Positions 361 to 37,892 of a stretch of 64,000 nt of DNA are shown piece by piece (the first letter of the stretch is position 1; every line of letters starts with the position of its first letter). The notes beneath the pieces were generated by a model that was not told the origin of the DNA, searched no databases, and saw only the letters and a program-made list of their open reading frames with translations. This DNA is from Alphaproteobacteria bacterium (GTDB taxonomy: Bacteria; Pseudomonadota; Alphaproteobacteria; GCA-2731375). The position numbers and the translations under genes are program-made. The stretch is taken from positions 32,001-96,000 of the forward strand of contig CBDDBZ010000025.1 in assembly GCA_965225945.1 (NCBI GenBank), read 5' to 3'.

Positions 361-1391
361 CCTGATTACGCACTTTACTCAGCCGGATTGATGTGGTACA
401 AATCGTGAACAAATGGCGGTTTTTCTGGAGGTTCACAATGCCACGCAACAAGGTTCAGTTCCAGAAGGGGCTCAGCGAGCCGCGTTTTCGTGAGTTGTAC
501 GGTACCGAGGAGCAGTGTCGCGAGGCCCTTTTCCGCTGGCGCTGGCCGGAGGGGTTCGCCTGCCCCCGATGTGGCGCCACGCGCCATTGCGAGATCGCCG
601 GGCGAAAACTCTACCAATGCGCCGCCTGCCGTCATCAAGTCTCGCTGACCGCCGGCACGCTCTTCCACGCGACCAAGCTGGCGCTGACCCTGTGGTTCTC
701 GGCGATCTATCACATGACCCAATCGAAGAAAGGGATCTCCTCCCTCGAACTCGGCCGCCGGCTCGGCGTCACCCAGACCACGGCCTGGAAGATCAAGCAG
801 AAACTGATGCAGTCCATGCTCGAGCGCGATGCCAAATTGCCGCTCACCGGGCGGGTGGAGATGGACGATGCCTACCTCGGCGGCCGGCTTTCCGGGGCCA
901 AGCGCGGCCGAGGCGCGCCGGGCAAGACGCCGTTCGTCGCCGCCGTCCAGACCACGGCGGAGGGCCAGCCCGTGCGCATCAAGCTCCGCCGCGTCAAGGG
1001 CTTCCGCAAGAGCGAGATCGCCAAGATGGCCAAGCGCGACCTGAGCCCTGGGGCGACCGTTTTCAGCGACGGGCTCAACTGCTTCACCGCCGTCACCACG
1101 CGGGGCTGTGCGCATCATCCGATATCCACCGGCTCCGGACCCGGGGCCGTCGCCGGGCCCGCCTTCAAATGGGTCAACACGACCCTCGGCAACCTCAAAA
1201 ACACCCTGCGCGGTACCTACCATGCGATCCGACCCAAGCATGTGCCGCGCTACCTGGCGGCGTTCCAGTACCGATACAACCGCCGCTACCGGCTCGCCGA
1301 CATGATCCGAAGCCCTCGGCCGCGATGCCCTGCATACGCCGCCCATGCCATATCGGCTCCTGAAGTTGGCTGAGGTTAGTGCGTAATCAGG
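361..1391 (+). mobile_element. IS1595-family insertion sequence (ISSod11-like)
   Basis: TIRs cctgattacgcact (361-374) and agtgcgtaatcagg (1378-1391); 8-bp TSD ttctactt at 353-360 and 1392-1399. Confidence 0.93.
438..1386 (+). CDS. IS1595-family transposase with an apparent frameshift near 1313
   Basis: Zn ribbon CPRC...CAAC, EMDDAYLGG, FSDG and RYLAAFQYRYNRR motifs. The family-like tail TPPMPYRLLKLAEVSA* lies in another frame ending at 1386. Confidence 0.88.
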
Positions 1392-35290: not shown

Positions 35291-36638
35291 CGTCTCGGCC
35301 AGCAGCCCTGATTTCGTAAGTTTACATTTTCGTAACTGCCCAGGTACATGGTGGCCTTTTAGGCGGCGTGGAGACGCTCGATCAGGGTTTCGGGATTTTC
35401 CATGAGCGCCTGGATGATGTTCCAGCCCTGTTTTCTGGCGGTCGAGATGAAGCCGCGGACGGTGGCAAAGTCTTCGGCGCCTTTCTGGCTGCGGAAGCCG
35501 CCGGAGATTTTCTGCTTGACCTTCATCATGCGCCCGTCCTGCTCGGCCTGATTGTTGGTGAACGGCACGGCGAAATTGATGAGGAAGCGCAGCGCGTCTT
35601 CCTTGTGTGTCTGAAGGCGCCGGAGAAGGTTGTGCCCGGTGCGGCGCGGCTTGCTTCCCCGGCGCTTGGCCTTGCTCGATCTGGGCGCAAGAGGAGGTTG
35701 TGCCTCGTGAAAGGCGATGCCCTCGGCCGTGATCGCGTCGTAACACCCTCGGAAGCGCTCGACGAGGCCTGGTTTCAGCGCCACGCCCCGCTCCCGGGCG
35801 AGATTTACCGCGTGGCAGGCGCGGCGCAATAGTCTCTGCATCTTGCGTGCCCAGCCCTCCTTCTCGATCTCGATCAGGGCTTGCAACTCGCGCAGGTGAT
35901 GGGCGTTGCACAGCGCGTGCCGTACGCCCTCCATCGTAAAGTACGGCTTCCAGTGGTCATGGACGACGATGCCGCCGACTCCGCCGAGCAGGCTGCCGCG
36001 TCGCTCCGAGACCCGATAGAAGGTCAACCGCGCGGTCGAGGCGACGTGCAACCATTGGGTCCGCCCGGCGATCCGCAAGCCGGTCTCGTCCATGTGCTTG
36101 ACCGGCGCCGATTTCACCAGTTCGCGGATCACATCGACGACGCCTTGGACGGACTCGGCGCTGTTCCCGCCCATCCGCGCGAGGCTCGCCGGAGACAGTT
36201 CCGCCCCGAACAGATCCTTCATCAATTCAGCCAGGCGGTCCTCGGGCAGGAGTTGGTAGTGCGACAGGTAGACCACCATGGCTCCGATCCGAGCGCCGTA
36301 TTGAACCGGGCCGGTGATGGCGACGGGAAAAGAAGCCCGAGTGTACGTGCCGCAATGCCCGCAACGGCAGCGATGCGCCCGATGCTCCGTGACCACCAGG
36401 GGCCGGGGCTCGGGTAGATCGAAAACCTGGCGGGCCCCATGGCCGGTAGCCATATCCGGCGTCAATCCCGAACCACACCACTGGTACGTCTCGGGATAAT
36501 GGTCGACGGTGGCGTCGGGATCGGCGACTTGGCGCAGGGTCTCGCCCTTGTGGCCCTTTTGCCCGCCCGGCTTGCGGGCCGATTTCTTACGGAGGCTCCT
36601 GGTGCGCTTCTTTTTACCCGCCGGTGGCTTGTTCAATC

Positions 36639-37393
36639 CATGCCTATCCGGTTATCACCCACACCCACTATATGTAGTGTGTCTCCTTGGACTGCAGGCA
36701 AGGGCCGGCGCAGGCGCATTGAGGAGGCGATCCGGCTAATTCTTGATTGTTCTGAAAACCGAACCGGAGTTTAATTCACGTCACGTACTTAACATCGGGG
36801 GACGGAACGGTGGCGACCAAGGGAAAAACGAAGAAACCCACGGCCAGACGGGAAGCTGCTGATGAAACGACATCGTCTGAGCGATTGACGGCACTAGTCG
36901 AAGAAAGCGACGCGCTGGCACGAATCGTTGCGAAGAACCCGTCCGCGCCTGTTAGTCTCCTGCGCGTTTTGAGTCGCAGCGAAGACGAAGCGACACGCAA
37001 GAACGTGATCCTCAATCCGTTTACTTCATATGACGTATTGAGCGAACTTGAAAACCAGTTCACAGAGCTATTTGTGAATAATCCGGCACTCGAATCCTAC
37101 AATTCAATGAAGCTCTGATTTCCTGGAATATTCCATCGGTGTCGTTCACCTCCGATTTCAGATAAATTTCAATGAAGTGACGGTCCTTTATGCAACGTGG
37201 CGTTTTGCCAAATCCGACTCAATGATTAGGATTTCCACCACGCTAAAGTGTCGCCTAAAAGGCGCTACAATGCCGTCCGAGTCCCTGCTCGGCATCGCCG
37301 GAGATATCTCCGCTTCGACCTGCACCGAGCTTTACTCAGGAAAATGGGTGCACACTACATATAGTGGGTGTGGGTGATAACCGGATAGGCAAG
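36639..37393. mobile_element. Non-autonomous cargo cassette (MITE/MIC-like) with 41-43-bp TIRs
   Basis: tgcctatccggttatcacccacacccactatatgtagtgtg (36641-36681) is perfectly inverted at 37351-37391; TSD gttcaatc (36631-36638 and 37394-37401); no transposase inside. Confidence 0.9.
36810..37118 (+). CDS. Passenger ORF resembling leucine-rich-repeat-variant (LRV)/HEAT-like repeats, possibly a gene fragment
   Basis: Repeating A.NP.[TA]P...L..L pattern (VAKNPSAPVSLLRVLS, VILNPFTSYDVLSEL, VNNPAL); more AT-rich than the host DNA. Confidence 0.6.
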   Translation: MATKGKTKKPTARREAADETTSSERLTALVEESDALARIVAKNPSAPVSLLRVLSRSEDEATRKNVILNPFTSYDVLSELENQFTELFVNNPALESYNSMKL

Positions 37394-37892
37394 GTTCAAT
37401 CCATCGCTCGACGGTGGCTTGCCGCTGTTCGTGCTGTTCAGGCCAAGCCGGCGCTCGAGTTCACCAAGCCGGAGTTCGAACTCGGCGAGCCGCGACCCTT
37501 GGGCCAGCACCACATCGATCAGCTCGTCTTTCGACAAAAAGGCAAGAACATCCCTATCCATCGAATCCTTAGAATCGACCAACCACCCTATGTCAAACGA
37601 AATCTAGGCCGTCAGCGCCCCAAACCCACAAAATCTGCCCCCAGAGACCCAATCCGCAGCCTCATCGAAATCAGCTACCTGGGCAGTTACACATTTTCTT
37701 TAATATTTTGTGCTGCGCGGTCCCACGCATAGTGATATAGGGCGCGCGGGGAGGACGGCGGCCGCTCTTCAGATGGGTGCGCCGTCGAGGCGACACAAGG
37801 GTTGGGCAGGCCGTCCATCGGGCGGCGCCGTCGCCGGTCGGTGAAGCGAATATCGGAGGGGCCGCCTGGCGGCGTTGGCGTCGAGTTTTCCA

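Follow-up and report, generated by a model that had tools for sequence, protein, structure and literature searches.

The 755-bp element at positions 36639-37393 of the window (the whole stretch of DNA that was analysed, 64 kb in length) belongs to the mobile insertion cassettes (MICs), an established class of element. The joint reading proposed here, a non-autonomous MIC of the IS1595 family that is likely helped by a resident ISAcr1-like insertion sequence (IS), carries an LRV gene under selection and represents a derived 755-bp form, is given a probability of roughly 0.8. The MIC assignment is founded on IS-type inverted repeats of 43 bp with a target duplication, perfect at 8 bp in 50 of 66 end-bounded copies genome-wide, and on an interior without a transposase gene, which holds only the LRV_2 gene and a transposase remnant that covers at most residues 279-338. 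The LRV_2 ORF supplies a gene putatively unrelated to transposition. As the original prediction held, the element is transposase-less, bounded by terminal inverted repeats (TIRs) and gene-carrying and must move in trans, neither ORF having a transposase domain. The element and its surroundings comprise the following features:

35332..36638, minus strand: IS66-family host IS (~1.6 kb), 3' portion; boundaries from multi-copy alignment.
35359-36636, minus strand: C-terminal 425 codons of the IS66 transposase; Pfam DDE_Tnp_IS66 E 7e-43, zf-IS66; NCBIfam transpos_IS66.
36631..36638, no strand: left 8-bp target-site duplication GTTCAATC; once only in 24 uninterrupted IS66 copies, fits the target preference.
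36639..36681, plus strand: left terminal inverted repeat, 43 bp; 30 of 32 positions equal to the left end of the resident 1105-bp IS.
36682..36809, plus strand: 5' leader of the LRV gene; conserved purine-rich GGGGGACGG block directly before the start codon (43 distinct elements).
36810..37118, plus strand: LRV_2 gene, 102 aa, GTG start; Pfam PF25591, 234 homologues, frame-specific dN/dS.
37119..37350, plus strand: segment particular to the 755-bp variant, an AT-rich stretch and the decayed 3' end of an IS1595-family transposase gene; in 3 of 44 end-bounded metagenome elements.
37351..37393, minus strand: right terminal inverted repeat, 43 bp; the transposase-remnant frame ends within it.
37394..37401, no strand: right 8-bp target-site duplication GTTCAATC; same basis as the left copy.
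37394..37690, minus strand: the same IS66-family host IS, 5' portion; Pfam DUF6444 E 9.8e-9, boundaries from multi-copy alignment.

The inverted arms, 36641-36681 and 37351-37391, are complementary at 41 of 41 positions and none of 100 shuffles gave a match, so that the long perfect TIRs first noticed in this region are genuine. The family consensus lengthens the ends to 43 bp, CTTGCC...GGCAAG, and over this length the present copy has one mismatch. The 8-bp duplication GTTCAATC lies directly outside the ends. The length of 8 bp originally put forward agrees with the perfect duplications of the other copies, which yield a clear target logo, whereas the alternative of 10-11 bp reflects a chance extension. 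The target preference is G-W-T-Y-R-A-W-C, AT-rich and roughly palindromic, and GTTCAATC fits it. The interior is AT-richer than its surroundings, as had also been observed, its GC content being 41-58%, compared with 61-67% for flanking DNA and 66.3% across the genome. No match was obtained from Rfam at a permissive threshold over 36500-37500.

The insertion into an IS66 copy is real. The host element carries the DDE_Tnp_IS66 and zf-IS66 domains and scores 288.9 bits against transpos_IS66 (cut-off 180). When the insertion is discounted a single IS66 transposase ORF of ~500 aa is restored, and neither tnpA nor tnpB was seen within the ~1.6-kb unit. The reading frame of this transposase begins at 37582 with the N-terminal DUF6444 and now continues into cassette sequence. 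A search for uninterrupted copies, as was initially recommended, found 24 in the genome, in which both flanks are contiguous and the 8 bp are present once. The empty-site joint 36630->37394, skipping 763 bp, was likewise present in contigs of four out of four public runs; these contigs break where the repeat ends. Pfam domains and uninterrupted copies together place the cassette in an IS66-family transposase gene.

The cassette has recently burst to ~70 copies in this genome. BLASTN against the 6.27-Mb genome gave 74 matches longer than 600 bp, most of them 99.5-100% identical, and 61 pairs of cassette ends were spaced 738-787 bp apart, 46 of these at exactly 755 bp. Altogether the cassette amounts to ~1% of the 6.3-Mb genome. 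The interior is the same in all genome copies with these ends and none of them encloses a transposase. The original expectations of a cargo-shuffling family and of an autonomous partner with the same ends were thus not borne out.

The family to which the ends belong was initially sought elsewhere. In that interpretation, the element is an IS4/IS231-type MIC capturing and shuffling foreign genes, and its second open frame is a truncated captured gene. According to Table 1 in the available part of PMC2266710, the IS231 group has CAT ends and 10-12-bp direct repeats, and the left end of this copy, CATGCCTATC, does begin with CAT; MIC231 cassettes are also the classic example of the MIC kind in the available parts of PMC2266710 and PMC3129680. 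However, the CATGCC left end is a private variant, mismatched at position 2 to the family end CTTGCC and otherwise found only in the copy G000:C36:113424-114178; CTTGCC stands at ~148 of 150 family ends and CAT at 2. The duplication of the cassette is 8 bp and not the 10-12 bp of the IS231 group, every copy has the same interior, and homology ties the second frame to an IS1595-family transposase gene and the right end to an IS end of that family. Furthermore, the IS231 group is reported as almost restricted to the Bacillus cereus group in the available part of PMC2266710, and the host here is an alphaproteobacterium. An IS4/IS231 affinity is accordingly dismissed as very improbable.

The evidence for IS1595 comes from a resident IS of 1105 bp, which encodes a 339-aa protein with a Zn-ribbon and a DDE domain (Zn_ribbon_IS1595 E 6.9e-14, DDE_Tnp_IS1595 E 3.7e-37; NCBIfam transpos_IS1595 192.6 bits). 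This transposase is 81.7% identical to one annotated 'IS1595-like element ISAcr1 family'. Cassette and resident IS have the terminal 16 bp in common and agree at 30 of 32 bp at the left end, and the right end of the cassette has 84% identity, in an alignment of 68 bp, with the ISAcr1 end found on Acidiphilium plasmids. The inner halves of the ends diverge, with 8 of 43 positions differing between cassette and resident IS at the right end. The ends of the cassette are thus homologous to those of an IS whose transposase has both IS1595 domains. The ISAcr1 copy itself (Acidiphilium cryptum JF-5 plasmid pACRY02, NC_009468.1 49895-50974) is 1080 bp long with CTTGCC ends and an 8-bp duplication, and it shares the outer ends CTTGCCTATCCGGTT with the resident IS and the cassette. 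The resident IS likewise makes 8-bp duplications, so that all three are alike in the length that ISfinder gives for the IS1595 family. In both ISAcr1 and the resident IS, as in the cassette, the transposase frame terminates within the right end; the two IS encode a transposase of 338 and 339 aa, respectively, and nothing else, whereas the cassette has the LRV gene and a dead transposase tail. At one locus, G000:C26:1261-3128, cassette and IS adjoin and the same 8-bp target, GTTCGATC, occurs three times. In the ISfinder family table, the ISSod11 subgroup of IS1595 would have the end motif nnnGcnTATC and autonomous IS of 1000-1100 bp. The cassette end CTTGCCTATC agrees with this putative motif, and the resident IS measures 1105 bp.

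The distribution of the two elements points in the same direction. Among 61 related genomes, the IS is at least 98% identical in four (G000, G002, G017 and G037) and the 755-bp cassette is at least 89% identical in exactly the same four, the other 57 having neither. A genome from another family, G221, has six cassettes at 98.8-99.6% identity and at least 20 full-length IS copies, and an ISAcr1-like IS at 98-100% identity is thereby present in all five cassette-bearing genomes. The co-occurrence in four out of four could be co-transfer on one vehicle, since only a few genomes are involved and these are either related or linked by DNA that was recently transferred. The dispersed copies, the shared ends and the co-occurrence suggest that the resident 1105-bp ISAcr1-like IS is the likely helper. 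The Zn-ribbon/DDE transposase of this IS would move the cassette, which has no transposase, in trans by recognising ends with the same outer 16 bp. One cassette copy inserted into the IS66-family transposase gene and thereby inactivated it. In this genome the cassette outnumbers the candidate helper ~7 to 1.

The second open frame, 37177-37377, has 66 aa from a GTG. It does run into the right TIR, as first described, but the suggestion of a captured and truncated foreign gene is replaced by that of an IS1595 transposase remnant. BLASTN of 37268-37393 against the resident IS gave 77% identity over 126 bp including the last transposase codons, and in tblastn the remnant aligned to transposase residues 279-338 (39% over 79 aa). 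Pfam returned nothing for the 66-aa frame. Judged by this homology, the second frame is the decayed 3' tail of an IS1595-family transposase gene. The original prediction had named an interior aligning to a transposase as evidence against itself, and since the second frame is such a remnant, a part of the interior does so align.

The remnant bears on the identity of the helper, which could instead be a different IS1595-family transposase, belonging either to an element of ~17 copies with the ends CGTCCCTATCCGGTTAAGG or to a vanished parent IS. The remnant resembles the resident IS at only ~39% (protein) and 77% (DNA, last 126 bp), so that the right end of the cassette derives from a different IS. 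Several further transposases of the IS1595 family, at 35-48% identity, are present in the genome, including the one at ~17 copies, and among 1.84 billion representatives no full-length transposase was closer to the 66-aa remnant than 69%. However, the outer end of the ~17-copy element differs from that of the cassette at two of the first six bases (CGTCCC versus CTTGCC) and its inner part is unrelated, whereas the ISAcr1-like IS has the outer 16 bp and the near-identical left end of the cassette, uses the same type of target and accompanies the 755-bp cassette in all five genomes. Another helper is therefore regarded as unlikely, and the ISAcr1-like IS is retained as the candidate.

The ORF at 36810-37118 matches Pfam LRV_2 (PF25591; E 2.6e-8, 34.1 bits, cut-off 27), corroborating the LRV/HEAT-like ORF originally seen in the interior, and none of the other matches to the cassette ORFs had a transposase domain. 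The protein is predicted to begin with a basic, disordered stretch and to continue in seven short helices (AlphaFold2 mean pLDDT 79.3). Foldseek of this model against the PDB gave no match at E <= 0.001; the one sensible match among the weak ones was 1lrv (probability 0.82, TMq 0.48), besides generic HEAT, ARM and TOG repeats. No family was found for the protein in PHROGs, PADLOC or NCBIfam, and Foldseek, PHROGs and PADLOC gave no functional homologue. A predicted complex of the ISAcr1-like transposase and the LRV protein had a median score of 0.16 against a mark of 0.32 and weighs neither way. A simple promoter scan, uninformative for an alphaproteobacterium, detected nothing sigma-70-like ahead of the LRV gene and a single weak site at 37205-37232. 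In RNA-library contigs, the depth of the cassette relative to the IS66 flanks was ~10x, equal to the ratio in the DNA run, and so gives no sign of transcription.

The 234 homologues of the LRV protein are nearly all 102 aa long at 74-99% identity, and this length is retained down to ~70% identity. Across distinct metagenome elements the median dN/dS was 0.256 (5-95%: 0.17-0.43), and variability at the three codon positions was 0.123/0.065/0.181. A frame control gave dN/dS of 0.26-0.27 in the frame of the ORF, while the remaining two forward frames had 0.88 and 1.41. The dN of 0.14 is on a par with how far the ends have diverged (0.17), and the mean JC distance of the leader (0.42) is near the dS of the ORF (0.56). 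The frame was intact in 40 of 43 distinct elements, a fraction that is biased upward since the set was gathered with the LRV protein as bait and ORF-less derivatives would be missed, while dN/dS itself is unaffected by this. By these substitution patterns, the LRV gene is shown to be under purifying selection. It does not conform to the arbitrary foreign cargo initially supposed, but forms the core that is conserved throughout a widespread family of cassettes. A longer LRV-repeat gene, L131, has 58% identity, and the ORF probably derives from the 5' portion of such a gene.

These data also weigh on the notion that the element is a decaying, MITE-like deletion derivative of an IS1595-family IS, in which the 102-aa frame is accidental or dying and without function. 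Such decay would be in keeping with the dead transposase tail kept in the cassette and with the broken ORFs, which number 10 of 71 full-length copies in this genome and 3 of the 43 distinct elements. It is opposed by the length held to ~70% identity, by a dN/dS that is both low and frame-specific, by the match to a curated Pfam domain above its cut-off and by the middle ~590 bp, which has no similarity to the presumed source IS; this explanation is considered improbable. An autonomous element, with the LRV protein acting alone or with a host factor as the recombinase, is hardly credible. The LRV gene is indeed the only conserved gene of a widespread mobile unit, and none of 63 metagenome loci had an adjacent IS1595 transposase. 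Yet no catalytic domain is present in the predicted structure, a short alpha-solenoid to which a disordered tail is attached. The only matches of the protein are weak ones to LRV, HEAT or ARM repeats, and both the ends and the 8-bp duplication belong to a DDE IS family. Non-autonomous movement of an IS1595-type cassette thus remains the favoured interpretation.

In metagenomes the family is widespread in a form of ~545 bp that consists of the ends and the LRV gene. The 755-bp form has ~210 bp in addition, including the dead transposase tail, and most of this is absent from the ~545-bp form; only the 3 of 44 end-bounded metagenome elements noted above have the extra segment. Comparison of the elements indicates that the 755-bp form is a derived variant of the ~545-bp family. 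The 755-bp form was also considered as the ancestral one and rejected, its clade nesting inside the ~545-bp elements with support of 95/93 and 96/90 in an ORF tree that was rooted with L131, a long branch, and is to be read with caution. A search of 185,579 species genomes for the exact 32-bp end pattern yielded five loci, in three alphaproteobacterial MAGs, and none of these loci encloses a transposase. The longer homologues of the LRV protein were 12 singletons of varied lengths, apparently fusions produced by read-through where the cassette had inserted. A transposase-bearing parent with the LRV gene was found neither among these longer homologues, nor at the metagenome loci, nor in the 1.84 billion representatives. 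A phage collection gave no match to the cassette, and a plasmid collection matched only its last 68-124 bp, to IS1595-family IS ends.

MIC231 cassettes were reportedly described from IS231 by De Palmenaer et al. in 2004, and transporter IS (tIS) are said to be treated in an IS1595-family paper by Siguier, Gagnevin and Chandler from 2009. In the available part of PMC3129680, MICs are elements with IS-type ends and a non-transposase gene whose activation by a cognate transposase elsewhere is presumed, and MIC231, derived from IS231 of the Bacillus cereus group, is the classic example. The cassette and MIC231 are alike in having inverted IS ends around one non-transposase gene and no transposase, but MIC231 belongs to IS4 with a duplication of 10-12 bp and the cassette to IS1595 with one of 8 bp. 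Unlike MIC231, the cassette is present in ~70 copies and has one small gene conserved family-wide instead of variable cargo. In the IS1595 family, tIS are IS with passenger genes as far as set out in the available parts of PMC3129680 and PMC7986276. Both tIS and the cassette are IS1595-type elements with a gene unrelated to transposition, but tIS retain the transposase and the cassette has none. With MITEs the cassette shares non-autonomy, high copy number, near-identical copies, IS-derived ends and target duplications. MITEs are small and usually defined as non-coding; the cassette differs in that, at 545-755 bp, most of it is a selected protein-coding gene of 102 aa. A literature search gave no description of an LRV-carrying IS1595 cassette, although most subscription journals lay outside it and an earlier description is possible.

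In this genome and its relatives, the cassette accounts for ~70 'hypothetical LRV proteins' as well as for numerous genes that are broken. Cassette and candidate helper, which show 99-100% identity between two bacterial families, mark a very recent horizontal spread. MICs and MITEs are commonly seen as mere passengers, whether as leftovers of a dead IS or as ends bracketing a useful host gene. Here, the LRV protein is conserved as tightly as the transposase-binding ends, and one may speculate that it aids the persistence or spread of the cassette as a protein- or nucleic-acid-binding accessory factor and is not inert cargo. More specifically, and tentatively, it might be a hijacking factor that, by binding either the cassette ends or the transposase of the IS1595 family, diverts a foreign transposase onto the cassette; this possibility, which we hold to be doubtful, would explain both a gene as constrained as the ends and the ~7 to 1 excess over the helper. 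The cassette offers a clean and small system in which to examine whether bacterial transposons that are non-autonomous can carry genes for factors favouring their own mobilisation. If the hijacking role were true, the cassette would be a 'satellite transposon' whose gene product serves specificity or recruitment and not catalysis.

The cassette at 36639-37393, for which two features are listed by position below, has truly been inserted and has duplicated 8 bp of target sequence.

36631-36638 and 37394-37401: 8-bp direct repeat GTTCAATC flanking the cassette arms
36810-37118: 102-aa ORF, Pfam LRV_2 (34.1 bits against a cut-off of 27)

This is established by the empty-site form, present both in other IS66 copies and in contigs of public runs. 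Both flanks were searched separately against the genome of the window (G000; 6.27 Mb, 39 contigs, here C1, C26 and so on), and 24 copies of the approximately 1.6-kb IS66 element were located with contiguous flanks and the 8 bp present once; these are the uninterrupted copies that the original prediction had proposed to look for. The same joint, skipping 763 bp (755 + 8), is also found in contigs of 4/4 public runs. The predicted inverted repeats, 8-bp repeat and AT-richer interior are all present: the arms 36641-36681 and 37351-37391 are complementary at 41/41 positions (0 matches in 100 shuffles), and the interior has a GC content of 41-58%, below that of the flanks (61-67%) and of the whole genome (66.3%). 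The predicted landing in an IS66 transposase is borne out by the minus-strand ORFs on either side, which are two halves of such a protein (Pfam DDE_Tnp_IS66, E 7e-43, with zf-IS66 and DUF6444; NCBIfam transpos_IS66, 288.9 bits).

G000 carries a heavy IS load: the ~1.6-kb IS66-family element has at least 26 copies and a second IS66-type element (66% identity) about 17, and to these come about 70 cassettes and several lineages of the IS1595 family. In a 91%-diverged IS66 paralogue (C35:217498-219865), the homologous site is occupied by a cassette of 100% identity, again flanked by duplicated GTTCAATC; this implies either that a hot spot received two insertions or that gene conversion took place. 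Two more IS66 copies harbour cassettes at other positions (C30:145497-146251 and C37:175191-175977).

BLASTN of G000 with the cassette gave 74 hits of more than 600 bp, mostly 99.5-100% identical, and an end-motif scan yielded about 150 ends of cassette type, forming 61 inward-facing pairs 738-787 bp apart, 46 of them exactly 755 bp. Copies in register define the true family ends as CTTGCCTATCCG...CGGATAGGCAAG, a perfect 43-bp inverted repeat. At end position 2 the window copy departs from this, with CATGCC, a variant otherwise seen only in C36:113424-114178. The target of that copy is another one, GTTTGAAG, so the variant belongs to the element and has been through one transposition or more. 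Perfect 8-bp duplications surround 50 of the 66 end-bounded copies, and the reconstructed targets reveal a palindromic, AT-rich preference, W-n-[G-W-T-Y-R-A-W-C]-n-W, within a 66% GC genome. As the dispersed copies are identical and their duplications fresh, the cassette has been mobile very recently. The other copies also settle the suggestion of cargo shuffling in the negative, since all G000 copies with these ends have one and the same interior, and none of them encloses a transposase. Diverged or resized relatives of 448 bp (C36:314243-314690, 73% identity) and 830-867 bp (C24:106414-107275, C28:77653-78519 and C29:77311-78160, 80-84% identity) look like older subfamilies beside the recent burst.

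The cassette was originally likened to the IS231 group of the IS4 family, for which Table 1 of PMC2266710 gives CAT ends and 10-12-bp direct repeats. Both tested features fail, the family ends being CTT and the duplication 8 bp, and IS4/IS231 membership was rejected. Weaker hits of the last 126 bp of the cassette led instead to a second repeat in G000, an IS whose ends read CTTGCCTATCCGGTT..., which makes 8-bp duplications and of which 8 copies measure exactly 1105 bp, others varying in length. Its 339-aa product carries Zn_ribbon_IS1595 (E 6.9e-14) and DDE_Tnp_IS1595 (E 3.7e-37), matches NCBIfam transpos_IS1595 (192.6 bits) and is 81.7% identical to the 'IS1595-like element ISAcr1 family' transposase of Acidiphilium cryptum plasmid pACRY02, where ISAcr1 measures 1080 bp and has CTTGCC ends and ATATATTG on both flanks. 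Compared with the 1105-bp IS, the cassette agrees at 30/32 bp of the left end and is 77% identical over 126 bp at the right end, a stretch that takes in the final codons of the transposase gene; in this IS family these codons extend into the right inverted repeat. Judged by its ends, the cassette is an IS1595-family derivative; the sequence CTTGCCTATC would fit the ISSod11-subgroup end motif of the ISfinder table. The second open frame (37177-37377), previously read as a captured gene, is evidently a dead transposase tail, because in addition to the right-end similarity its ...SLLGIAGDISASTCTELYSGKWVHTTYSGCG aligns with ...SLLGIAGDTSAPTYAELYSGEWRHPTCSGHGR of the transposase tail and tblastn aligns it to transposase residues 279-338. 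The 339-aa transposase also aligned by tblastn to window 435-1313 (+) (G000:C25:32435-33313; 26% over 328 aa, E 3e-25), which is a further, distant IS1595-family transposase gene.

The 1105-bp IS itself occurs in variant forms. Composite units join a complete 1105-bp (or 1132-bp) ISAcr1-like IS to a partial copy, 513 bp of its right end in inverted orientation, and are thereby bounded by two right ends:

C1:44070-45700, C14:57696-59326 and C15:7573-9203: 1631-bp composite units
C33:95821-97478 and C38:177697-179354: 1658-bp composite units

A separate target duplication of 7-8 bp surrounds every unit, which suggests that the composite moves as one piece. Two 1121-bp variants (C19:59701-60821 and C34:188810-189930) have right-end sequence at both ends, a transposase alignment beginning at residue 15 and a perfect 8-bp duplication around each.

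The LRV gene had been regarded as incidental foreign cargo, a view at odds with its presence throughout the family and with its mode of evolution. Among 5.8 billion protein clusters, 234 relatives were found at E <= 0.001, nearly all exactly 102 aa and 74-99% identical, in an alignment free of indels; most lie on 0.5-1.5 kb contigs, as expected of a collapsed repeat. A metagenome scan with the protein alignment gave 63 loci, 44 with both ends placed. The common form, 41 of these 44, measures 516-560 bp and consists of left end, leader, 102-aa gene, about 20 bp and right end, many with intact 8-bp duplications; only three (L071-L073) are of the 755-bp form. The frame is open in 40/43 distinct elements, a fraction biased by the LRV bait, which misses ORF-less derivatives and leaves dN/dS unaffected; 34 are exactly 306 nt and 6 have in-frame deletions, and the broken frames are those of L077, L127 and L128. 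The median Nei-Gojobori dN/dS was 0.256 (5-95%: 0.17-0.43) over 538 pairs with dS > 0.1, codon-position variability was 0.123, 0.065 and 0.181, and in the frame control the ORF frame gave 0.27 versus 0.88 and 1.41 for the other forward frames. Amino-acid-changing divergence (0.14) resembles that of the inverted repeat (0.17), and the leader (0.42) is close to silent sites (0.56). These comparisons argue that the LRV gene is the core of the cassette and under frame-specific selection. A plausible kind of donor is the gene on metagenome contig L131 (2417-2957): its product is a chromosomal LRV-repeat protein of greater length, 58% identical to the cassette protein in the N-terminal region, and no IS1595-type ends were found near it. 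Twelve long proteins containing the query, singletons of assorted lengths, look like read-through fusions at insertion sites.

Element positions 502-712 (window about 37140-37350), an AT-rich stretch plus the transposase tail, are missing from the common form. Because the 755-bp clade is nested among ~545-bp elements in the ORF tree (supports 95/93 and 96/90), a nesting to be taken with caution given the long branch of the L131 root, we regard the 755-bp form as the derived one, arising when a ~545-bp cassette gained the right end of an IS1595-family IS. At only 77% identity, the donor of that end would not be the resident 1105-bp IS; no closer full-length transposase was present among 1.84 billion representatives, the best reaching <=69% identity over the last 32 residues.

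The cassette has no transposase of its own by Pfam domain search, and we infer that the ISAcr1-like 1105-bp IS is the helper moving it in trans, on the grounds of shared ends, equal duplication length, similar targets, abutting copies and co-occurrence. The outermost 16 bp of the ends are identical. At C26:1261-3128 and C32:60181-62048 the two elements adjoin, separated by exactly 8 bp; in the C26 pair these 8 bp are GTTCGATC, an 8-mer also found left of the cassette and right of the IS, so that one target was used twice. In a set of 61 related genomes, only G000, G002 (partial), G017 and G037 contain the IS at >=98% identity, and exactly these have the 755-bp cassette at >=89%; the remaining 57 lack both. 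The number of such genomes is small and they are not independent of one another; joint transfer on a single vehicle would produce this pattern too. G221, from a different family, holds six cassettes (98.8-99.6% identity) with 8-bp duplications; full-length IS copies number at least 20 there and at least 40 in G037. It is possible that another IS1595-family transposase of G000 is the helper; a third such element has different ends, CGTCCCTATCCGGTTAAGGCAGG, and about 17 copies, and its transposase shares about 35% identity with that of the ISAcr1-like IS. Example copies are:

C25:16733-17647, third IS1595-family element
C35:214262-215339, third IS1595-family element
C37:187169-188127, third IS1595-family element

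One copy of this element interrupts an IS66 copy, and two are found with truncated cassettes (C4:70811-71927 and C32:287082-288088). That the 1105-bp IS and the cassette are both near-identical in two families of the same class speaks for their recent horizontal transfer. Sponge metagenomes and metatranscriptomes are among the public runs in which the sequence is present.

The cassette works like a mobile insertion cassette (MIC), as this is defined in PMC3129680, and displays the MIC features tested; passenger genes in IS1595-family members are mentioned there and in PMC7986276. An earlier description of an LRV-carrying IS1595 cassette family was not found in the literature searched, which was of limited coverage. 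The MIC kind itself is known; what we found without description are the family with an LRV gene, its metagenome breadth, the selection on the gene and the ~70-copy burst.

In the AlphaFold2 model (28-row alignment, mean pLDDT 79.3), residues 1-20 form a disordered N-terminus rich in lysine and arginine, and seven short helices come after it. Foldseek gave no match at E <= 0.001, the LRV prototype 1lrv being the only specific weak match, and PHROGs, PADLOC and NCBIfam returned no family. In the ESM Atlas the protein falls in a 317-member LRV_2 cluster, and small LRV proteins occur in clusters with phages as commonest taxon. The predicted fold suggests a binding scaffold and nothing more specific, and direct recruitment of the transposase by the LRV protein seems unlikely. 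Since nothing in the family is conserved apart from this gene and the ends, our best guess is that it serves the persistence or spread of the cassette.
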